Part shown: positions 38,612 through 51,045 of the stretch, piece after piece | Layout: every line of letters starts with the position of its first letter | Position numbering within the stretch: position 1 is the first letter of the stretch | NCBI GenBank assembly: GCA_965226045.1 | Contig: CBDDBU010000028.1 | Location: 193,387-257,386, forward strand | Length of the DNA: 64,000 nt | DNA from: Alphaproteobacteria bacterium | Lineage (GTDB): Bacteria; Pseudomonadota; Alphaproteobacteria; VGEJ01 | Reading direction: 5' to 3' | Position numbers and translations under genes: made by a program | Notes under the pieces: model-generated | Told to the model about the DNA's origin: nothing | Database searches by the model: none | Seen by the model: the letters and a program-made list of their open reading frames with translations, nothing else

Positions 38612-38702
38612 GGTCGTGGGATGGGGAGGCGAGTGGACCACTGGGCCAGAATGAGGTCAAGACGATGCGGCGCGGGCTTGACTTGAGGCCTCTCCGGCTT
38701 TA

Positions 38703-38717
38703 GAACAAATAAAGAAC
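38703..38717 (+). promoter_or_regulatory. Alphaproteobacterial LexA (SOS) box GAAC-N7-GAAC upstream of imuA
   Basis: gaacaaataaagaac 23 nt upstream of imuA ATG, overlapping AT-rich promoter-like region (tataat at 38720-38725). Confidence 0.7.
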
Positions 38718-38739
38718 ATATAATATTCAGGACGGAATC

Positions 38740-39537
38740 ATGCCGCCGTTCGTTTCCGCCGCGCGACCGTCTATTCGCCTTCGATCCTCGTCGCTTGCCG
38801 ACCTGCGACGCCGGATTGGGGCCATTGAGCGGCCAGTATTCACCGCCGCCGCCACGGCTCGAACTTTGCCGGTGGGGATCGAGGCCATCGATGCGCGCCT
38901 CCCTGGCGGCGGTCTGCCACTTGGCTGTCTGCACGAAATTATCGGTCGGGATGCCGGCGCTGGCGCCGGCTTCTGCGCGGCTTTGCTGGGGAAACTGGTC
39001 GCTTGCCGTGGTGGGGTCGTCCTCTGGTGTGTGCATCTCGCCAGCGTTCACGAAGCGGGCGGCCTGTATGCACCAGGCTTGGCCGCCGGCGGTCTAAATC
39101 CCGAGCGGCTGATCGTGGTGCGGGCGGCCAAGGCGATAGACGTTTTGTGGGCGATGGAGGAAGGCTTGCGCGGTGATCGGCTCGCCGCAGTGCTGGGTGA
39201 GGTGCGCAAGATCGATCTGAGGGCGAGCAGGCGTCTTCAACTTGCCGCCGAGGCGAGCGGAACGAGCGCCTTCCTATTACGGCCATCGAGTGCCGAAGAA
39301 GGCTCGCCGCCAACGGCCTCCGTCACCCGTTGGCGCTTGGCCGCCGCGCCCGCGCCGGTCGGGCCGTTCTCGCCCTTCGACAGAACGCGCTGGCGTGCCG
39401 AACTCCTGCGCTGTCGCGGCGGCAGACCGGGAGGGGCATGGGTATTGGAGTGGGACCATGAGACGGGCGATCTCGGTTTGGCTGCCGACCTTCGCGACCG
39501 ACCGGTTGTGCCGTCAGACGCCCTCATGGCGATCTGA
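38740..39537 (+). CDS. imuA: ImuA (RecA/SulA-like SOS mutagenesis protein)
   Basis: IEAIDARLPGGGLPLGCLHEI, LWAMEEGLR, ASRRLQLAAEASGTSAFLLRP match ImuA family; first gene of imuA-imuB-dnaE2. Confidence 0.8.
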   Translation: MPPFVSAARPSIRLRSSSLADLRRRIGAIERPVFTAAATARTLPVGIEAIDARLPGGGLPLGCLHEIIGRDAGAGAGFCAALLGKLVACRGGVVLWCVHLASVHEAGGLYAPGLAAGGLNPERLIVVRAAKAIDVLWAMEEGLRGDRLAAVLGEVRKIDLRASRRLQLAAEASGTSAFLLRPSSAEEGSPPTASVTRWRLAAAPAPVGPFSPFDRTRWRAELLRCRGGRPGGAWVLEWDHETGDLGLAADLRDRPVVPSDALMAI

Positions 39538-40999
39538 ACCGCTGGCGACCGCGACCGCGGCGCAGAGCGGCCTGCGGATCATGGCCGCCAACCATGCGGC
39601 GCGGGATGGGGGCATCCTCCCCGGTCTGTTGCACGCCGATGCCCGCGCGCTGATCCCCGATTTGCGGGTCATCGATGCCGACCCGGTTGCCGATGCGAAA
39701 GCGTTGGCCCTGCTCGCCGATTGGTGCGGCCGCTACACGCCCTGGACCGCCGTCGATGGCGTTGATGGCTTGTGGCTCGATATCGCGGGCTGTGCGCATC
39801 TCTTTGACGGCGAGGCCGCGCTTGCCGATGACATCGAGGAGCGCCTGAGGGGGCTCGGTTTCGCGGCCCGCGTCGGTCTCGCCGACAGTCCCGGCGGCGC
39901 TTGGGCGGCGGCCCGATTCCTCGCCGATGAAAAAAAGTTGATCGCCGTCGGCGGCGTGCGCCTTGCTCTGGCCGGTTTGCCGTCGGCGGCATTGCGATTG
40001 CCAATCGACATCGTTGAAGGCTTGGACCGCATGGGCCTGGGCCGAATCGATGATCTTCTCGCGTGCCCACGAGCACCGTTAATCGCCCGTTTTGGCCCCC
40101 TCCTGGGCGAGCGGATCGACCGAGCCCTCGATCGCGTCACGGAGCCGATCTCGCCGCGCCGGCCGGCGCCATGCTGGCGTATCCGCCTCGGCTTTCCGGA
40201 ACCCTTGTGTCGAGAGAGCGACATTGCCGCCGCGACGCGCCGGCTGATCGACCGGTTGTGCACGCGGCTTGCTCTCGATCAGCGCGGTGTGCGGCGCCTC
40301 GAACTCGTGCTGTATCTGGTCGACGGCAAGACCCACGGAGTCGCCGTCGGCACCAGCCAGCCAGAGCGCGATCCCAAGCACCTAATGAGATTGCTGAGTG
40401 AGCATCTTGAGGGCTTCGATCCCGGCTTCGGGGTCGAGGTAGCGGTTTTGGCGGCGCCCCTGACCGAACCGCTGGGCGCAGCGCAACTGACCATGGCTGT
40501 CACGCTCGAGGGCCAGGGCCAGCCCGCCGATGACGCGGCGCTGGCAGCGGCGATCGGCCGCTTGGTCGACAGCTTGAGCAACCGGCTGGGCGCGGGCAAT
40601 GTCAGCTGCTTCGCGGCCAGGGAAAGCCACGTCCCGGAGCGGGCGGTATATTTGCGCCCGCCCCTGGAGACATCGCTGGATACCGGTGCGATCGGCCAGG
40701 CCAACCCGCAAAGGCCGCTGCGGTTATTCCCACACCCCGAACCGGTCGAGGCGGTCGCCTTGGTGCCCGACGACCCGCCGGTGCTGTTTCGCTGGCGCCG
40801 ACGGGCGCATCGAATCGTCCATGCCGACGGACCGGAACGGATCTCCCCGGAATGGTGGCGACACGAGAAACGTGGCGTCGCGCCGCGCGATTACTACCGT
40901 GTCGAGGACAGCGAAGGCCGGCGGTTCTGGCTCTATCGAGAGGGGCTCTACCGGCCCGAGGCCCGGCCGCGTTGGTTCCTACATGGCCTCTTCGCGTAA
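39458..40999 (+). CDS. imuB: ImuB (Y-family DNA polymerase-like, catalytically inactive type)
   Basis: MRRAISVWLPTFATDRL N-terminus typical of ImuB; overlaps imuA 3' end; ~513 aa. Confidence 0.8.
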   Translation: MRRAISVWLPTFATDRLCRQTPSWRSEPLATATAAQSGLRIMAANHAARDGGILPGLLHADARALIPDLRVIDADPVADAKALALLADWCGRYTPWTAVDGVDGLWLDIAGCAHLFDGEAALADDIEERLRGLGFAARVGLADSPGGAWAAARFLADEKKLIAVGGVRLALAGLPSAALRLPIDIVEGLDRMGLGRIDDLLACPRAPLIARFGPLLGERIDRALDRVTEPISPRRPAPCWRIRLGFPEPLCRESDIAAATRRLIDRLCTRLALDQRGVRRLELVLYLVDGKTHGVAVGTSQPERDPKHLMRLLSEHLEGFDPGFGVEVAVLAAPLTEPLGAAQLTMAVTLEGQGQPADDAALAAAIGRLVDSLSNRLGAGNVSCFAARESHVPERAVYLRPPLETSLDTGAIGQANPQRPLRLFPHPEPVEAVALVPDDPPVLFRWRRRAHRIVHADGPERISPEWWRHEKRGVAPRDYYRVEDSEGRRFWLYREGLYRPEARPRWFLHGLFA

Positions 41000-41018
41000 G
41001 AATCTCATGGGAGGAGTC

Positions 41019-41252
41019 ATGGCTGACCTTACGATCCACAACATCGATGCAAGCGTCGTCGCGGGCCTTAAGGCCCGCGCGCGCGCCAACAATCGTTCGC
41101 TTGAAAGCGAAATTCGCGAAATCCTCGCCGCCGCCGTGGACCCCGTACGCGCCCTTGATCTACGTGCGCTTGCCGAACGGATCGCCGCGATGACGCCCGA
41201 GGTGGATCAGACCGACAGCACCGGACTGTTGCGCGACGACCGGCGACGATGA
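41019..41252 (+). CDS. Ribbon-helix-helix protein, FitA/VapB/StbC antitoxin-like, orphan (no adjacent PIN toxin)
   Basis: 77 aa, MADLTIHNIDASVVAGLKARARANNRSLESEIREILAAAV; gggaggag RBS 8 nt upstream; stop overlaps dnaE2 ATG. Confidence 0.65.
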   Translation: MADLTIHNIDASVVAGLKARARANNRSLESEIREILAAAVDPVRALDLRALAERIAAMTPEVDQTDSTGLLRDDRRR

Positions 41253-44200
41253 CCGCCCATATGCCCCGATACGCCGAGTTGCAGGTCACCAGCAATTTCA
41301 GCTTTCTGCGCGGCGCCTCGCACCCTCAGGAGCTTGTCGCCACGGCCGCCGCGCTGGGCCATGACGCCGTCGCGATCGCGGACCGCAACTCGCTCGCCGG
41401 CGTGGTGCGCGCTCATGTGGCGGCCAAGGCGACCGGTATCAAGCTGGTTGTGGGGACACGGCTCGATCTTGCTGAAGGGCCAAGCTTTCTCTGCTTTCCC
41501 ACCGACCGCGCCGCCTATGGCCGGCTGACCCGCTTGCTCACGCTCGGCATGCGCCGGGCGCCCAAGGGGGAATGCTTCATCGGCCGCGACGATGTCGTCG
41601 CCCACGCGGACGGGCAAATCCTGGTGGCGCTCCCGCCACCGCGAACCGACGAGGCTTTCGCCGAGGAGCTCGGTAGCTGGCGTCAGGCGCTGTCCGGGCC
41701 GCTGTTCCTCGCGGCCCATCATCTTTATCGCGGTGATGATCGCAGCCGCATCGCCCGGCTCGCGGACGTGGCGAAGCGCTGTGCGACACCGCTGGTCGCG
41801 ACCAACGACGTCCATGCCCATGTCGCGGCCCGCCGGCCGCTCCAGGATGTGCTCACCTGTATCCGTGAGCGCTGCACGATCGAGGAGGCCGGCTACCGCC
41901 TGTTCACCAACGCCGAGCGCCACCTCAAGCCGGCTGACGAGATGGCGCGTTTGTTCCGGGGCTGGGAAGACGCGGTGGCGCGCACGGTGGCGATCGCCGA
42001 GGCCTGTCGCTTCAGTCTGGATGAATTGCGCTACGAATATCCAGAGGAGGTCGGCGAGGGGCGTTCGGCGCAGGAGGAACTGGAGCGACGGACCTGGGAG
42101 GGCGCCGCCGGTCGCTATCCGGAGGGCGTTCCCGACAGCGTGCGTGAGCTGTTGCGGCATGAACTCGGGCTGATCGACAGTCTCGCCTATGCGCCCTACT
42201 TCCTCACGGTCGATGACATCGTTCGCTTCGCCCGAAGCCAGGATATTTTGTGCCAGGGTCGCGGGTCAGCCGCCAACTCCGCGGTCTGCTATTGCCTCGG
42301 GGTGACCGCCGTCGATCCTGGCCGGATTGGCCTTTTGTTCGAGCGCTTCGTCAGCGCCGAGCGCAAGGAGCCGCCCGACATCGATGTCGATTTCGAGCAT
42401 GAGCGGCGCGAGGAGGTCATTCAACACATCTACGAGAAGTACGGCCGCCATCGCGCCGGGCTTACGGCGACGCTCATCACCTACCGTTCGCGCAGCGCCA
42501 TCCGCGAGGTGGTCAAGGCGTTGGGGCTCTCGCCCGACACGGCGACGGCGTTGAATGGGACGATGTGGGGCTCGAATCGAACCGGCATCGACGAGGCCAA
42601 GGTGCGCGAGGCCGGGCTTGATCCCGCCGATCGCACACTGCGGCTCGCGCTCGTACTGGCCCGCGAGCTGATCGGCTTTCCCCGCCATCTTTCACAGCAT
42701 GTCGGCGGCTTCGTCATCACCCGAGGCCCGCTCTGCGAGATGGTGCCGATCGCGAACGCGGCCATGGACGACCGCACCGTTATCGAATGGGACAAGGACG
42801 ATATCGACGCGCTCGGTATCCTCAAGGTTGACTGCCTCGGACTGGGCATGTTGACCTGTATCCGCAAGGCGCTGTCGTTGCTCGTCGAACATCATGATCG
42901 GGAGCTCGCGTTTTCCGATGTCCCGGCCGAGGATCCAGCGGTCTATGACATGCTGTGCCGGGCCGATTCAATCGGCGTGTTTCAGGTTGAGAGTCGCGCC
43001 CAGATGAGCATGTTGCGGCGCCTGAAGCCGCGCAACTTCTACGACCTGGTGATCGAGGTGGCGATTGTTCGGCCCGGCCCGATCCAGGGCGACATGGTGC
43101 ACCCTTATTTGCGCCGCCGTCGTGGCGAGGAGATGGTTTCCTATCCCTCCGAGGAACTGCGTGAGGTTCTCGGCAAGACCTTGGGCGTGCCGTTGTTTCA
43201 AGAGCAGGCGATGCGAATCGCCATCGTCGCCGCCGGTTTCACGCCCGCAGAGGCCGATTCCTTGCGCCGGGCGATGGCCACGTTCCGCCGCAACGGTCAG
43301 ATCCACATGCTCAAGGAGAAGCTGATCGAGGGGATGGTGGAGCGGAACTATGAGCGCGAGTTCGCCGAGCGCTGCTATCGCCAGATCGAGGGTTTCGGCG
43401 ATTACGGCTTTCCCGAATCACATGCGGCGAGTTTCTCGCTGTTGGTCTATGTCTCGTCCTGGCTCAAATGCCACTACCCGGGCGCATTCGCGTGCGCGCT
43501 TCTTAACAGCCAGCCGATGGGCTTCTACGCGCCGGCGCAGATCGTGCGCGATGCGCGCGAACACGGTGTCGAGGTGCGCCCGGTCGACGTCAACCACAGT
43601 TTCTGGAATTGCACATTGGAGCCGGGCGATGGTGAGAAGCCCGGCGGCGTGGCTCTCAGGCTCGGTTTTCGCCAGATCAAAGGGTTCGCCGAGGACACTG
43701 CGGAGCAACTGACGGCACGCCGTGGTCGCGGCTATCGCGAGGTCTACGAACTGTGGCGGCGCGGTGACCTTGGCCCCGCCATACTCGAACGCCTCGCCCA
43801 GGCCGATGCGTTCACCTCCATAGGCCTCTCCCGTCGCCAGGCGCTATGGGCGGTGCGGGGGCTTGGCCAAATGCCGGGCCTTGGACTATTGCCGCTGTTC
43901 GCGACCTCGGCCAAAGGCGCTGACGAGACGGCGTCACCGCACGAGATCGGGCCAGAGCCGGAGGTCGAGCTGCCCGCCATGACCCTGGGCGAGGAAGTGA
44001 TCAATGACTACAGCTCGCTCAAGCTGACCCTGAAGACGCACCCGCTCGCGCTTCTGCGGCCGATGCTCGCGGCCAAGCGATTCGTGCCCAATCGGACGCT
44101 TGAACGAACCCCGGCGGGGCGGTGGGTTCGGGTTGCCGGTCTCGTGGTCTGCCGCCAGCGGCCCGGGACGGCGAGCGGCGTCATCTTCATGACCATCGAG

Positions 44201-44500
44201 GATGAGAGCGCCATCGCCAACATCATCGTCTGGCCGTGCGTCTTTGAGCGCTTTCGCAAGGTCGTTTTGCGCGGCCGCTTGATCGGGGTCGTCGGCAAGG
44301 TCGAGCGTGAGGGCGCCGTCATCCATGTTATCGCCGACCGGCTGTTCGACTATTCCGACCGACTTGCCCAGCTCGTTCATCTTGAAGCCGTTCACGAGCA
44401 GCTTCCTCAATCGCTTGCCTGGGCCGACGGGGCCCGTGGCGATCGTGGCGACGATCGGCGCATCAGCCCCGCGGACTTTCCCTCGCGCGACTTTCACTGA
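41249..44500 (+). CDS. dnaE2: Error-prone DNA polymerase III alpha subunit DnaE2
   Basis: 1083 aa; PHP domain N-term (YAELQVTSNFSFLRGAS), pol III alpha core, OB fold; downstream of imuAB. Alternative start Met5 at 41261. Confidence 0.9.
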   Translation: MTAHMPRYAELQVTSNFSFLRGASHPQELVATAAALGHDAVAIADRNSLAGVVRAHVAAKATGIKLVVGTRLDLAEGPSFLCFPTDRAAYGRLTRLLTLGMRRAPKGECFIGRDDVVAHADGQILVALPPPRTDEAFAEELGSWRQALSGPLFLAAHHLYRGDDRSRIARLADVAKRCATPLVATNDVHAHVAARRPLQDVLTCIRERCTIEEAGYRLFTNAERHLKPADEMARLFRGWEDAVARTVAIAEACRFSLDELRYEYPEEVGEGRSAQEELERRTWEGAAGRYPEGVPDSVRELLRHELGLIDSLAYAPYFLTVDDIVRFARSQDILCQGRGSAANSAVCYCLGVTAVDPGRIGLLFERFVSAERKEPPDIDVDFEHERREEVIQHIYEKYGRHRAGLTATLITYRSRSAIREVVKALGLSPDTATALNGTMWGSNRTGIDEAKVREAGLDPADRTLRLALVLARELIGFPRHLSQHVGGFVITRGPLCEMVPIANAAMDDRTVIEWDKDDIDALGILKVDCLGLGMLTCIRKALSLLVEHHDRELAFSDVPAEDPAVYDMLCRADSIGVFQVESRAQMSMLRRLKPRNFYDLVIEVAIVRPGPIQGDMVHPYLRRRRGEEMVSYPSEELREVLGKTLGVPLFQEQAMRIAIVAAGFTPAEADSLRRAMATFRRNGQIHMLKEKLIEGMVERNYEREFAERCYRQIEGFGDYGFPESHAASFSLLVYVSSWLKCHYPGAFACALLNSQPMGFYAPAQIVRDAREHGVEVRPVDVNHSFWNCTLEPGDGEKPGGVALRLGFRQIKGFAEDTAEQLTARRGRGYREVYELWRRGDLGPAILERLAQADAFTSIGLSRRQALWAVRGLGQMPGLGLLPLFATSAKGADETASPHEIGPEPEVELPAMTLGEEVINDYSSLKLTLKTHPLALLRPMLAAKRFVPNRTLERTPAGRWVRVAGLVVCRQRPGTASGVIFMTIEDESAIANIIVWPCVFERFRKVVLRGRLIGVVGKVEREGAVIHVIADRLFDYSDRLAQLVHLEAVHEQLPQSLAWADGARGDRGDDRRISPADFPSRDFH

Positions 44501-48783: not shown

Positions 48784-49713
48784 TTATGCACCAGCTTCCG
48801 GCCGGACCAACATGTTGTAGGTGAAGGGCTTGGTGCACACGGCGATGCCGAACAGCGAGCGGAAGGCGGCGTGGCGTGTCCGGCGCCGGTTGAAGCGGAA
48901 CACGAACTCGTCGAGATAGCTTTGCAGGTGCTTGGCGCGCAGCCCGCGATAGACGCCGCGCGCCCAGCCCTTGAGATTGGAGAACACCTGATGGATCCAG
49001 GGCAGCACGAGGTGGGCGGCCATGGAACCGATGACGTGGGGATCGTGGGTCTCGACGGGGGCCGCGGCGTAGCCGGCCCAGCCGTCGGTCTTGGCGGTGC
49101 TGGCGGCGGCGATGTTGTGGCCGATGAAGCGGTTGCGGCTTTCGGCGCCGTAGGACGCGATCTCGGCCAGGCGCAGGCGGCCCGGCGCGTTGCCGTCGCC
49201 GACCTCGACGGCGCCGACGACGAGCAGCTTGCCGTCGTGGCTGCGCCCGGCGCCGCCGGCCACGGGATCATTCTTGGTGCGGAACGCCAGCGCGGTCTCG
49301 TCGACCTCGATGAGGCCCGACAACGGGTCGCGCTCGGGATCGACCATGGCTTTGCGCAGCTTGGCGGCGAGCAGCCAGGCGCTGCGATAAGAACCGATCC
49401 CGAGCTGGTTCTGGAGCTGCAGCGCCGCGATCCCGTTCGAATGCGTCGCCATCAGGTAGGCGGCCCAGAACCAGACGGTGAGCGCGAGCTTGCTGCCGTG
49501 CAGGATGGTCCCCGCCGTCACCGAGGTCTGGCGATGGCAGCGCGCGCACTCGAACGTGTGGGCCTTGCCGCGTAGCGCCCAGCCGTGATCATGACCGCAG
49601 CGCGGGCATTCGAAGCCCTCGGGCCAGCGCACCGAGGCGAGCCACGCCGCGCAGGCGTCGTCGTGCGGGAACATGCGTTGGAAGGCGATCAGACTGTCGG
49701 GGAAGCGATCCAT
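48784..49713 (-). CDS. IS1595-family (ISXO2-like) transposase
   Basis: N-terminal zinc-ribbon (CPRCGH...CARCHRQTS) and DDE domain typical of IS1595/ISXO2. Confidence 0.85.
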   Translation of the reverse strand: MDRFPDSLIAFQRMFPHDDACAAWLASVRWPEGFECPRCGHDHGWALRGKAHTFECARCHRQTSVTAGTILHGSKLALTVWFWAAYLMATHSNGIAALQLQNQLGIGSYRSAWLLAAKLRKAMVDPERDPLSGLIEVDETALAFRTKNDPVAGGAGRSHDGKLLVVGAVEVGDGNAPGRLRLAEIASYGAESRNRFIGHNIAAASTAKTDGWAGYAAAPVETHDPHVIGSMAAHLVLPWIHQVFSNLKGWARGVYRGLRAKHLQSYLDEFVFRFNRRRTRHAAFRSLFGIAVCTKPFTYNMLVRPEAGA

Positions 49714-49857
49714 GGGGCGGCTCCTGGTAATCGAACAAACCAGGAACCAACTATCCTACAACCACGCCCAACGCAACATCTCGTGCCGCCGGAACGTCGT
49801 GCATAAGCGATTACCGTTGTTGCTTTTCAAAACCCATCTGATTTTCAGAAAGATCCG

Positions 49858-51045
49858 TTGACGGAAGTCCTACAAGCTGGAGCTCGCGAGTTGTTGGCCC
49901 AAGCCGTTGAGGCCGAGGTCTCCGTGTTTTTGGGTAGCCATGCGGCGCTTGTTGACGCCGCCGGCCGCCGCCGGGTTGTCCGCAATGGATATCTGCCGGA
50001 ACGCTTCATCCAGACCGGGATCGGCCCGGTGAGCGTGCGCCAACCCCGTGTGCGGGACCGGGGGGACGGCGCCATCCGCTTCACGTCGGCGATCCTGCCG
50101 CGCTATCTGCGCCGCGCCAAGAGCCTGGAAGACCTTTTGCCATGGCTGTATCTGAAGGGCATTTCCACCGGCGACTTCGGGGAAGCCTTGGCGGCGCTCC
50201 TGGGGAGCTCCGCGCCGGGGCTTTCGGCCTCCACGATCACCCGGCTGAAAGAGGTCTGGGGGGTTGAGGCGGAGCGCTGGCAACGGCGCGACCTCACGGC
50301 CAAGCGCTACGTCTATTTCTGGGTGGACGGCATCTATTTCAGCGCCCGCATGGAGGAAGAGAAGCAGTGCATCCTGGTGATCGTCGGGGCCACGGACAAG
50401 GGACAGAAGGAACTGATCGCCATCGCCGACGGCTATCGCGAAAGTGAGCAGTCCTGGCTCGAAGTTCTGCTCGATCTCAAGCGGCGCGGCCTTGAAATGG
50501 GTCCGCAACTGGCGCTCGGCGACGGCGCGCTCGGCTTCTGGAAGGCGCTCCGCCAAGTCTACCCAGGCGCCCGCGAGCAACGCTGCTGGGTTCACAAGAC
50601 GGGCAACGTCTTGAACAAGCTGCCCAAGGGTCTGCAAAAGAAAGCCAAGGGGCGCCTGCAAGACATCTGGATGGCCGAAACCAGGAAGGATGCCGAGAGC
50701 GCCTTCGACTTCTTCCTGGAAGCCTACGGGCCGAAGTACGACAAGGCCGCGGCCTGCCTGGCCAGGGACCGCGACGTCCTGCTGACGTTCTACGACTTCC
50801 CCGCCGAGCACTGGAAGCATGTACGCACGACCAACCCCATCGAGAGCACGTTCGCCACGGTTCGTCTGCGCACCTACCGGACCAAGGGCTGCCTGTCGCG
50901 CAAGACGGCGATGGCCATGGTCTTCAAACTATGCCAGCGCGCTCAGAGAAAATGGAGAAAACTCGATGGATCGAACCATCTCGCCGAGATCATTCGCGGC
51001 GTCAAATTCGTAGATGGAGAACGCCAGGATCGCGCCGCCGCATGA
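49858..51045 (+). CDS. IS256-family (Mutator-type) transposase (TTG start or 5'-truncated)
   Basis: YVYFWVDGIYFSAR, CWVHKTGNVLNKLP, NPIESTFATVR motifs. Confidence 0.85.
   Translation: MTEVLQAGARELLAQAVEAEVSVFLGSHAALVDAAGRRRVVRNGYLPERFIQTGIGPVSVRQPRVRDRGDGAIRFTSAILPRYLRRAKSLEDLLPWLYLKGISTGDFGEALAALLGSSAPGLSASTITRLKEVWGVEAERWQRRDLTAKRYVYFWVDGIYFSARMEEEKQCILVIVGATDKGQKELIAIADGYRESEQSWLEVLLDLKRRGLEMGPQLALGDGALGFWKALRQVYPGAREQRCWVHKTGNVLNKLPKGLQKKAKGRLQDIWMAETRKDAESAFDFFLEAYGPKYDKAAACLARDRDVLLTFYDFPAEHWKHVRTTNPIESTFATVRLRTYRTKGCLSRKTAMAMVFKLCQRAQRKWRKLDGSNHLAEIIRGVKFVDGERQDRAAA

Follow-up and report, generated by a model that had tools for sequence, protein, structure and literature searches.

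The imuA-imuB-dnaE2 cassette found in the 64,000 nt stretch of DNA analysed here (the window) is not compact, for a gene of 77 codons encoding a ribbon-helix-helix (RHH) protein lies between imuB and dnaE2. The question is whether this gene belongs to the mutasome operon or arrived there by another route. Two answers had been offered by the first-pass annotation: an extra layer of transcriptional or stoichiometric control, or the relic of a toxin-antitoxin (TA) insertion. The evidence presented below favours the latter; with a probability of about 0.7, the gene is an orphan antitoxin in decay, derived from a type II TA module at the imuB-dnaE2 junction, rather than a dedicated mutasome regulator.

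The cassette and its intervening gene

The window contained a DnaE2-type polymerase gene, with imuA and the Y-family-like imuB located 5' of it on the same strand (Table 1). The dnaE2 product included the PHP, DNA_pol3_alpha, finger, HHH_6 and OB domains of Pfam. The ImuB N-terminus, MRRAISVWLP, aligned to its homologues, and a weak Pfam match to DUF6504 fell under the cut-off; the gene overlapped imuA by 80 nt. The score for imuA was short of the NF033429 cut-off (150 bits), and so its assignment combines this weaker match with conserved position, homologues of 36–88% identity being found 5' of imuB in related loci. Searching for GAAC-N7-GAAC produced three matches in the window where 2.1 were expected, so that the count alone says little; the position of the LexA box is conserved, however, since nearly every related locus covering the region had a single box 5' of imuA. 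This motif places a predicted LexA operator ahead of the first cassette gene. The first annotation of the cassette was therefore correct. Its supposed affinity with Rhizobiales was not upheld, as the closest ImuB relatives belonged to Rhodospirillales-type alphaproteobacterial MAGs.

Table 1. Features of the cassette, with positions in the window
Feature	Position	Strand	Evidence and remarks
LexA box, GAAC-N7-GAAC, alphaproteobacterial type, GAACAAATAAAGAAC	38703..38717	.	Read directly; 22 nt 5' of the imuA ATG
imuA, 265 aa	38740..39537	+	NCBIfam ImuA_translesion NF033429, E = 7.9e-25, 87.8 bits
imuB, 513 aa (start codon ATG, 39458)	39458..40999	+	Pfam IMS (1.1e-10) and IMS_C, both above cut-offs
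imuB-RHH spacer, 19 nt	41000..41018	+	Shine-Dalgarno GGGAGGAG at 41009-41016
FitA/VapB-like RHH gene, probable orphan antitoxin, 77 aa	41019..41252	+	PF22513 FitA-like_RHH
RHH core (helix 2), GC-rich, deleted in close relatives	41081..41146	+	DNA alignment of the junction; ambiguous alignment ends make the coordinates approximate
RHH codons 51-77, LAERIAAMTPEVDQTDSTGLLRDDRRR	41169..41249	+	Hallmark motif of the cassette-associated RHH subfamily; most constrained part of the protein
ATGA overlap	41249..41252	+	RHH stop TGA 41250-41252, dnaE2 ATG at 41249
dnaE2, error-prone DNA polymerase, 1083 aa	41249..44500	+	NF004225, 1410.8 bits (cut-off 939)

Comparison of imuB-dnaE2 junctions showed that over 60 loci have a homologue of 77–83 aa at this position, and therefore that the 77-aa reading frame is real and not a chance occurrence. 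Its near-consensus ribosome-binding site, as previously noted, was present; only 2 nt separate GGGAGGAG from the ATG, and the GGAGG core is 4 nt away. The FitA/VapB-type N-terminus that had been recognised by eye was borne out by a profile search, in which residues 2–40 covered the entire 39-position model of PF22513 (E = 8.1e-14, 51.7 bits, against a curated cut-off of 27 bits), although sequence likeness to FitA itself was weak (E = 0.058). The AlphaFold2 model (mean pLDDT 73) had extended residues 1–10, helices at 11–23, 28–40 and 48–58, and a tail of low confidence to which no secondary structure was assigned. The best PDB matches found by Foldseek were all RHH proteins, the first being FitA from the FitAB-DNA complex 2bsq (probability 0.97), although the short length of the protein limits its E-value to 0.29. 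The predicted structure is thus an RHH fold with a C-terminal extension. Within the protein, residues 1–40 comprise the RHH domain (DNA binding and dimerisation), 41–50 a variable linker, and 51–77 a conserved tail that is presumed to bind the toxin.

The described imuA-imuB-dnaE2 architecture does not include the gene, as had been remarked when it was first annotated. The window resembles the Caulobacter crescentus-type cassette in its GAAC-N7-GAAC LexA box, gene order and imuA/imuB overlap, and differs from it in having the extra gene. A 2026 survey of bacterial polymerases dealt with ImuA-ImuB-DnaE2 modules and mentioned no TA component (PMC12926913), and our literature search found no published description of the imuA-imuB-vapB-vapC-dnaE2 arrangement that is described next.

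A toxin gene and a putative operator array in related cassettes

A motif census showed that the RHH subfamily is marked by the C-terminal motif RIAAMTP..QTDS..LLREDRDR and is almost confined to the imuB-dnaE2 junction; every look-up of the context of close homologues returned that junction. When metagenomes were searched with the RHH alignment, 80 loci were found, 45 of which had a full-length RHH match inside the cassette; none of the 29 matches restricted to the N-terminal RHH domain was in a cassette. Directly 3' of the RHH gene, 41 of the 45 cassette loci had a catalytically intact, VapC-type PIN gene (PF01850), while three had none and one was unscored. The PIN gene was also next to the RHH gene in L006, L013, L014, L021 and L052, the first of these being the sister lineage of the window. 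Among 18 PIN sequences, the acidic residues D6, E42 and D116 were invariant and D98 nearly so. In all five pairs that were checked, the RHH stop codon overlapped the PIN start, as GTGA in L013 and as ATGA in the other four loci just listed. Outside the cassette, the RHH-PIN module was observed at two loci (L094 and L108), and distant standalone relatives of the RHH protein are carried by alphaproteobacterial plasmids.

Most PIN-bearing cassette loci also possessed an array of TGCTAGCA palindromes, spaced at 11 bp, 5' of the RHH gene. The imuB-RHH spacer in relatives was 46–105 nt long and usually contained one to four of these palindromes. In 27 PIN-bearing spacers there were 99 TGNNNNCA sites, compared with 5.8 in shuffled sequences, and 39 occurrences of TGCTAGCA; 52 of 72 successive operator-like sites were 11 bp apart. 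These palindromes probably represent an RHH operator and internal promoter. As predicted from these sequences, many Alphaproteobacteria have a VapBC-type module with its own operator at the imuB-dnaE2 junction, which is widespread and position-specific rather than a one-off insertion.

The window has lost both the toxin and the operator. As first reported, no PIN/VapC gene follows the RHH gene, where dnaE2 begins at the RHH stop codon; no PIN homologue was detected in the 64-kb window by tblastn, nor by comparing the cassette-PIN profile with all of its six-frame ORFs (best E = 4.2). Among the best 120 of 3456 PIN-family matches, none came from contigs with the lengths of those carrying the window RHH gene or its 84% identical relative. 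Similarly, there was no TGCTAGCA array in the 64-kb window, and the 19-nt imuB-RHH spacer contained no palindrome. Since toxin and operator are absent, the window contains an antitoxin gene and not a TA system, which is where it departs from FitAB and VapBC. The resemblance to those systems lies in the N-terminal domain with its PF22513 match, in FitA as the best structural match, and in the modelled C-terminal tail; in relatives it extends to the 3' PIN gene, the stop/start overlap, the intact acidic residues and the 5' palindrome array. The subfamily is further distinguished from FitAB and VapBC by its own conserved tail motif and its nearly exclusive address. Neutralisation of a toxin by direct antitoxin binding would fit that conserved tail, which gives it indirect support.

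Selection and decay at the junction

Purifying selection on the solo RHH gene was evident over the longer term. The window and L002, the 84% identical relative, have an identical PIN deletion, and across the split between them, which is the older one, RHH dN/dS was 0.31 (bootstrap CI 0.14–0.68, dS = 0.30); a second, independent solo lineage gave 0.16 (CI 0.07–0.29). The C-terminal 27 residues were the most conserved part of the protein even without a neighbouring toxin; in codons 51–77, omega was 0.16 and 0.05 in the two solo lineages, dS was normal, and the segment was invariant among the intact alleles of the window's clade. This suggests that a partner is still bound by the tail, or was bound until recently.

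Within the window's clade, the intact alleles had omega values of 0.37–0.59 for the RHH gene, against 0.08–0.23 for the N-terminal region of dnaE2. Three independent deletion alleles, each in 3–6 contigs, have destroyed the RHH gene: a 66 nt in-frame deletion in the core (L174-177), a 68 nt core deletion with frameshift (L178-180), and deletions of 2 nt and 9 nt near 41091–41116 (L171-173). In these lineages imuB and dnaE2 were intact, 96–98% identical to the window, and under constraint (omega 0.15–0.46). The junctions can be placed in a decay series, which begins with paired RHH-PIN loci, followed by intact solo genes (window/L002, L007-10, L102, L120 and L128), and which ends with a C-terminally decayed solo RHH gene (L030) and then with tight junctions lacking RHH, such as L011, the sister of RHH-bearing L012. 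Evidence against decay consists of the window gene itself, which is intact with a strong and conserved Shine-Dalgarno, of dN/dS ratios clearly below 1 across the L002 split and in the second solo lineage, and of the conservation of the C-terminal 27 residues.

The low dN/dS ratios and the conserved tail are what might be expected of a functional solo antitoxin, kept because its tail still acts against a homologous PIN toxin from another site in the genome, or against one incoming on cassettes or plasmids, in keeping with the anti-addiction roles proposed for orphan antitoxins (PMC7192599). The RHH-PIN modules outside the cassette and the plasmid-borne relatives make such toxins in trans plausible. 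Yet this explanation is unlikely, given the three independent destructive alleles in the nearest relatives and the lack of a PIN gene both in the 64-kb window and, among the best 120 PIN matches, on the contigs of the window RHH gene and its relative; moreover, with the promoter and operator region of the gene itself lost, it would be expressed only under SOS conditions.

The overlap with dnaE2 raises a different explanation, that of a spacer for translational coupling, for which translation of some ORF up to the start of dnaE2 would be all that matters and the protein would be irrelevant. The ATGA of the window, correctly noted at first annotation, joins RHH to dnaE2 with the same overlap geometry that joins RHH to PIN in relatives. 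In L171, the later ATG (M5 of the window dnaE2) reads ACG, and so the overlapped ATG is the usable dnaE2 start in the window's clade. There is no good Shine-Dalgarno directly 5' of this start, and coupling of dnaE2 to an upstream ORF is plausible because approximately 48 cassettes have tight junctions, in which −13 to +56 nt separate the end of imuB from the start of dnaE2. The last 30 or so codons remained open to the dnaE2 start in all three disrupted alleles. However, the two frameshift alleles stop 23–27 codons after the SD-linked ATG, far 5' of dnaE2, and dnaE2 is still intact and constrained in both; nor would a spacer explain constraint at the amino acid level, with omega well below 1. 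It is improbable, then, that the gene is a spacer only, even if it may well be translationally coupled to dnaE2, as once to vapC.

Least credible of all is the added regulator of the mutasome operon, for despite a DNA-binding fold, predicted co-transcription with the cassette and conservation in several solo lineages, the RHH-family operator is missing from the cassette promoter and the entire window, position 7 of the beta-strand is histidine in the window's clade where most of the subfamily has arginine, and close relatives that keep the cassette have deleted the RHH core.

Proposed history and known parallels

Descent from a TA module, as an orphan antitoxin in decay, would begin with the order seen in relatives: LexA box, imuA, imuB, operator spacer, vapB, vapC and dnaE2, where vapB is the RHH gene with its stop overlapping the vapC start, and vapC is a PIN nuclease with four acidic catalytic residues. 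In the window lineage, one deletion would have reduced the operator spacer to 19 nt with a strong Shine-Dalgarno, and another would have removed the whole PIN gene, possibly through the ATGAC common to the vapC and dnaE2 starts, with the result that the RHH stop codon and the start of dnaE2 overlap. The RHH gene would now be transcribed only with the SOS operon and is probably still translated, ribosomes passing on to dnaE2, with neither a cognate toxin adjacent nor an operator in cis. Constraint on the protein was kept over the longer term, but the gene would now be dispensable, because its closest relatives destroyed it three times while imuB and dnaE2 were unharmed; it probably lacks a function at present. 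Of the two answers first offered, the TA relic prevails, the RHH subfamily and PIN gene occupying the same slot in most relatives, including the sister lineage; the control layer is not supported, loss of the TGCTAGCA array and destruction of the gene in three near-identical lineages speaking against it. Being a TA remnant, the RHH gene should not be counted as a component or regulator of the mutasome.

The closest parallel is the dinB-yafN-yafO-yafP operon of E. coli, where two promoters serve yafNO, the SOS-controlled dinB promoter and an antitoxin-autoregulated one of its own (PMC2814082), and where gene content is reported to vary among strains (PMC3105422). In both cases a TA pair sits within a LexA-controlled operon for an error-prone polymerase; the paired relatives of the window have a similar, predicted two-tier layout (a LexA box 5' of imuA and an operator-bearing spacer 5' of vapB), and gene content at the imuB-dnaE2 junction is likewise variable. 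The differences are that the families are RHH/PIN rather than YafN/YafO (YafN being the antitoxin, and YafO an mRNA interferase that depends on translation and has been studied among the RelE homologues); that the polymerase is the ImuA-ImuB-DnaE2 mutasome rather than Pol IV; that the TA genes are mid-operon, 5' of the catalytic polymerase gene, instead of 3' of the polymerase as in E. coli; and that the window keeps the antitoxin alone, its second promoter/operator tier having been deleted.

The feature in the window is modest, and the conserved, cassette-embedded TA module is the interesting part. The E. coli parallel suggests that error-prone polymerase operons and TA pairs are recurrently linked, perhaps through operon 'addiction', a damage-independent dnaE2 promoter, or growth arrest during mutagenesis. 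It is a tentative and rather doubtful proposition that RHH-PIN and its TGCTAGCA array constitute a conserved, largely co-inherited accessory of the cassette, and more than a selfish passenger. If so, they might provide a second, LexA-independent dnaE2 promoter gated by the antitoxin, or tie SOS mutagenesis to PIN-mediated growth arrest, or both, and solo antitoxins like that of the window would keep a working role, for instance in buffering such toxins in trans.

Orphan antitoxins are common in Klebsiella, and degrading TA pairs are among the explanations offered, as is anti-addiction (PMC7192599). Like those, the window gene has no adjacent toxin and lies in a context where intact pairs are found in other genomes. 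Unlike them, its decay can be traced stepwise in one fixed genomic slot, the imuB-dnaE2 junction providing an unusually clean series from pair to orphan antitoxin, to broken antitoxin, to nothing; and the orphan appears to have inherited the coupling of the toxin, now to the unrelated dnaE2.

The cassette and its additional gene

The first-pass annotation had described an SOS mutagenesis cassette in which a LexA box precedes imuA, an overlapping imuB and dnaE2, and this organisation was borne out by the coordinates and by profile searches. The 77-aa ORF that it had placed before dnaE2, preceded by an RBS-like GGGAGGAG and with its stop codon (TGA) overlapping the dnaE2 ATG, was likewise recovered, and a profile-HMM search placed its product in the FitA-like ribbon-helix-helix (RHH) family. 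Matches to the LexA-box pattern were close to chance frequency across the 64 kb (3 by pattern search, against 2.1 expected), and a second GAAC-N7-GAAC match is therefore probably fortuitous; almost every related locus covering that region had one copy of the box upstream of imuA. Within the cassette, a promoter scan identified no sigma-70-like promoter and a terminator scan returned terminator-like sites at chance level; hence, nothing in these scans pointed to an internal promoter or terminator near the window RHH gene. There were no Rfam matches in the window.

Features of the cassette and of related loci (L numbers); positions refer to the window unless a locus is named
Feature	Position	Strand	Basis or remark
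LexA box GAACAAATAAAGAAC	38703-38717		22 nt upstream of imuA; read from sequence
imuA	38740-39537	+	ImuA_translesion profile match, below its cut-off
imuB	39458-40999	+	ATG within imuA; IMS and IMS_C profile matches
imuB-RHH spacer		+	19 nt, contains GGGAGGAG; read from sequence
RHH ORF, 77 aa	41019-41252	+	FitA-like_RHH PF22513, 51.7 bits vs cut-off 27
RHH codon 7	41037-41039		Arg-to-His replacement
dnaE2	41249-44500	+	NF004225 'error-prone DNA polymerase', 1410 bits
Two divergent long ORFs	48784-51045	- and +	309 aa (-), 395 aa (+); transposase-like in appearance
Second GAAC-N7-GAAC match	49733-49747		flanked by the two transposase-like ORFs
Junction with XRE-type HTH gene and IS66-family element	L006 5631-9018		PIN gene cut to 169 aa
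REP-like repeats	L007-L010 6235-6370		
Cassette PIN	L052 8020-8691		among the loci showing the two PIN length classes
Insert, ~1.1 kb	L101 706-1854		between PIN gene and dnaE2
Insert, ~480 nt, with ORF	L120 745-1227		between imuB and RHH gene
Variant lineage	L129 717-1366		9-nt imuB-RHH spacer, no operator
Variant lineage	L132 4001-4575		9-nt imuB-RHH spacer, no operator
Insert, ~730 nt	L133 1076-1809		between RHH and PIN genes
Standalone RHH-PIN pair	L183 291647-291871		plasmid copy, S. meliloti 1021 pSymA

The AlphaFold2 model of the window RHH, built on 21 sequences (mean pLDDT 73), comprised an extended N-terminus, helices at residues 11-23 and 28-40 and a third helix at 48-58, followed by a tail of low confidence with no assigned secondary structure. 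Its best PDB matches were FitA in the FitAB-DNA complex, mycobacterial VapB-type antitoxins, CopG and Arc, with E-values that were weak because the protein is short.

RHH-PIN pairs in related cassettes

A protein search returned 25 RHH homologues with 60-100% identity, 20 of them full-length (77-83 aa) and a few shortened, and in every context retrieved the gene was located at the imuB-dnaE2 junction. In L001-L005 the RHH was 84-100% identical and had the same dnaE2 overlap; L007-L010, which belong to another genus and have different flanking genes, were 62-66% identical and had a REP-like element of 120-140 nt before dnaE2. In L006, the sister of the window lineage in the ImuB tree, the RHH gene was followed by a PIN gene with an ATGA overlap. 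The L006 PIN gene was truncated by an IS66-family element, and the interval from imuB to the RHH gene contained an XRE-type HTH gene encoded on the other strand; an intact 280-aa form of this PIN, 99% identical, is present elsewhere, and a look-up of that full-length version found no record.

Species-representative genomes were scanned with ImuB and the best 80 alphaproteobacterial loci retained, which did not include the window's own genome; the best match was 55% identical. In this biased sample of best matches, about 48 loci had a tight imuB-dnaE2 junction (-13 to +56 nt), four had RHH and PIN (L013, L014, L021, L052) and one or two had RHH only; the RHH of L030 had a decayed C-terminus and that of L012 lay at a contig end. 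The first-pass annotation had referred to related Rhizobiales, a placement that was not supported: none of the labelled loci was Rhizobiales-like, most being Rhodospirillales-type MAGs, together with Skermanella and Parvibaculaceae.

A metagenome search using an alignment of junction RHHs (A1) yielded 80 loci. Full-length matches flanked by imuB and/or dnaE2 numbered 45, of which 41 had a PIN gene, three did not (L102, L120, L128) and one was cut by a contig end. Two pairs of the same type were found outside the cassette (L094, L108), and of the 29 matches limited to the N-terminal RHH domain none was in a cassette. The cassette-associated subfamily was marked by a tail motif, RIAAMTP..QTDS..L(L/I)REDRDR.

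The PIN partners of cassette RHHs matched PF01850, with D6, E42 and D116 invariant and D98 nearly so, and from these residues they look catalytically competent; their closest solved relative by sequence was PAE0151. Two length classes were observed among cassette PINs (P0027, P0034, P0038, P0042 and others, and L052), of approximately 140 aa and 270-285 aa, the longer carrying an additional C-terminal PF12616 (DUF3775) domain. Pairwise identities of RHH and PIN correlated positively with those of ImuB and DnaE2 (rho = 0.35-0.59; ImuB versus DnaE2, rho = 0.73), a pattern that fits mainly vertical co-inheritance with the cassette and some exchange. Clear discordance was seen between L101 and L103, where PIN was only 53% identical and DnaE2 97% identical, and L052 and L127 shared 91% identity in RHH, 54% in ImuB and 50% in PIN. 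These mosaics suggest that recombination in the conserved flanks has exchanged toxin-antitoxin (TA) alleles among cassettes.

Where a PIN gene was present, the spacer separating imuB from the RHH gene was mostly 46-105 nt, and most of these spacers contained TGCTAGCA, or near matches to it, in 1-4 copies directly upstream of the SD. Across 27 spacers there were 39 copies of TGCTAGCA and 99 TGNNNNCA sites (5.8 in shuffles), with an exact 11-bp spacing in 52 of 72 successive sites; the two non-cassette loci checked (L108, L134) had the same sites. By analogy with other RHH antitoxins, the TGCTAGCA array was interpreted as a putative RHH operator within an internal promoter. No such site occurred in the 19-21 nt spacers of the window and of L002, its relative with an 84%-identical RHH, or in the 22-nt spacers of L007-L010; in the window as a whole there were no paired operator-like sites, and single ones were about as frequent as chance would give (9, with 7.4 expected). 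On the strand presumed to read DNA, residue 7 was Arg in most of the subfamily and His in the window clade. This replacement was specific to the window/L002 clade and coincided with operator loss; L007-L010, the other solo lineage, kept Arg.

Origin of the present junction

The first-pass annotation had noted that no PIN gene follows, and none was found in the 64-kb window. None of the best 120 of 3456 PIN-profile matches lay on contigs of 639,119 or 4,539,446 bp, the lengths of those carrying the window RHH and its 84% relative, which is suggestive of there being no unlinked partner. The window locus is not a TA system, since an adjacent toxin and an operator were both sought and neither was found. 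Two readings had been offered for the gene: that it is the relic of a TA insertion, and that it is an extra control layer. The former is supported; the latter is not.

In all five pairs checked, the RHH stop overlapped the PIN start, as ATGA (L006, L014, L021, L052) or GTGA (L013), and the native dnaE2 genes of relatives also open with ATGACC (MTAYAEL...). Deletion between these short identical stretches at the vapC and dnaE2 starts would excise vapC exactly, and the RHH stop would then overlap the dnaE2 start, as in the window. L002 has the same junction, so the vapC deletion would predate the divergence of the window and L002. The next in-frame ATG of dnaE2 is replaced by ACG in L171; thus, the overlapped ATG at 41249 is the usable dnaE2 start in the window clade. 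Independent insertion of a lone RHH gene was rejected in view of the PIN-bearing sister lineage, the shared ATGA geometry and the tail motif.

At the level of whole systems, the ancestral arrangement most closely resembles E. coli dinB-yafNO, a TA pair within an SOS-regulated translesion polymerase operon, transcribed both from the SOS promoter and from a promoter of its own that the antitoxin regulates (PMC2814082). Genome surveys commonly report orphan antitoxins (PMC7192599). The RHH gene had been considered foreign to the described cassette, and in keeping with this no report of a TA pair at the imuB-dnaE2 junction was found in the literature, of which coverage was partial; none is mentioned in a 2026 survey covering bacterial polymerases and their partners (PMC12926913). 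The window feature is an ordinary evolutionary leftover at an unusual address, and the part worth pursuing is the conserved imuA-imuB-vapB-vapC-dnaE2 variant with its putative operator.

A plasmid collection contained only distant standalone RHH relatives (≤59% identity, and about 42-44% for the matches listed), and no cassette-embedded form in a cultured model was found there. Standalone RHH-PIN pairs on S. meliloti 1021 pSymA (L183) and on a Roseomonas gilardii plasmid (L184), with RHHs approximately 36-44% identical, did not adjoin imuB or dnaE2; the tail of the pSymA copy was related (...QTPSEVLLRESRDER), and TGCTATCA-like repeats lay upstream of it. Plasmid stability modules of this kind may be the source of the cassette subfamily.

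Small selfish elements also use the junction as a general insertion site (L022, L075, L083; L025, L059, L085; L043, L044, L128; L046, L082; L007-L010). Judged by inspection of translations, from which the family names are taken, the inserts resembled DUF559/Vsr-like endonuclease ORFs, GIY-YIG ORFs, REP-associated tyrosine-transposase-like ORFs and REP-like palindromic repeats; in L128, a REP-associated tyrosine-transposase-like ORF occupied the place of the PIN gene.

Constraint and probable decay of the solo gene

The solo RHH gene was constrained over the long term. Its dN/dS was 0.31 between the window and L002 (bootstrap CI 0.14-0.68; dS = 0.30), 0.16 between L007 and L010 (0.07-0.29) and 0.28 between L012 and L102, and paired loci gave 0.05-0.28. 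For the tail (codons 51-77), omega was 0.16 and 0.05 in two solo lineages with normal dS, which indicates constraint on the protein and not on the nucleotides.

Three independent RHH lesions were identified within the window's own species-level clade, in strains whose imuB and dnaE2 were 96-98% identical to those of the window (dS = 0.045-0.10, omega = 0.15-0.46; imuB values come from proper alignments, ungapped comparisons being left out because indels misalign them). These were deletions of 2 nt and 9 nt causing a frameshift and a stop after 27 codons (L171-173), an in-frame 66-nt deletion removing helix 2 (L174-177), and a 68-nt deletion with frameshift (L178-180), each allele being present in 3-6 contigs. 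Among intact alleles (window, P0146, L181, L182), RHH omega was 0.37-0.59, the N-terminal region of dnaE2 gave 0.08-0.23, and all RHH replacements fell within residues 5-44. Given these lesions alongside retained imuB and dnaE2, and an RHH omega above that of dnaE2, the RHH protein is dispensable for upkeep of the cassette and is decaying. In the variant lineage of L129 and L132 the RHH C-terminus was rewritten (...ASMTPEHVRSPVRQGAPRATL) and the PIN-like region was 40% identical, with an in-frame stop in L129; this is possibly another route of decay.
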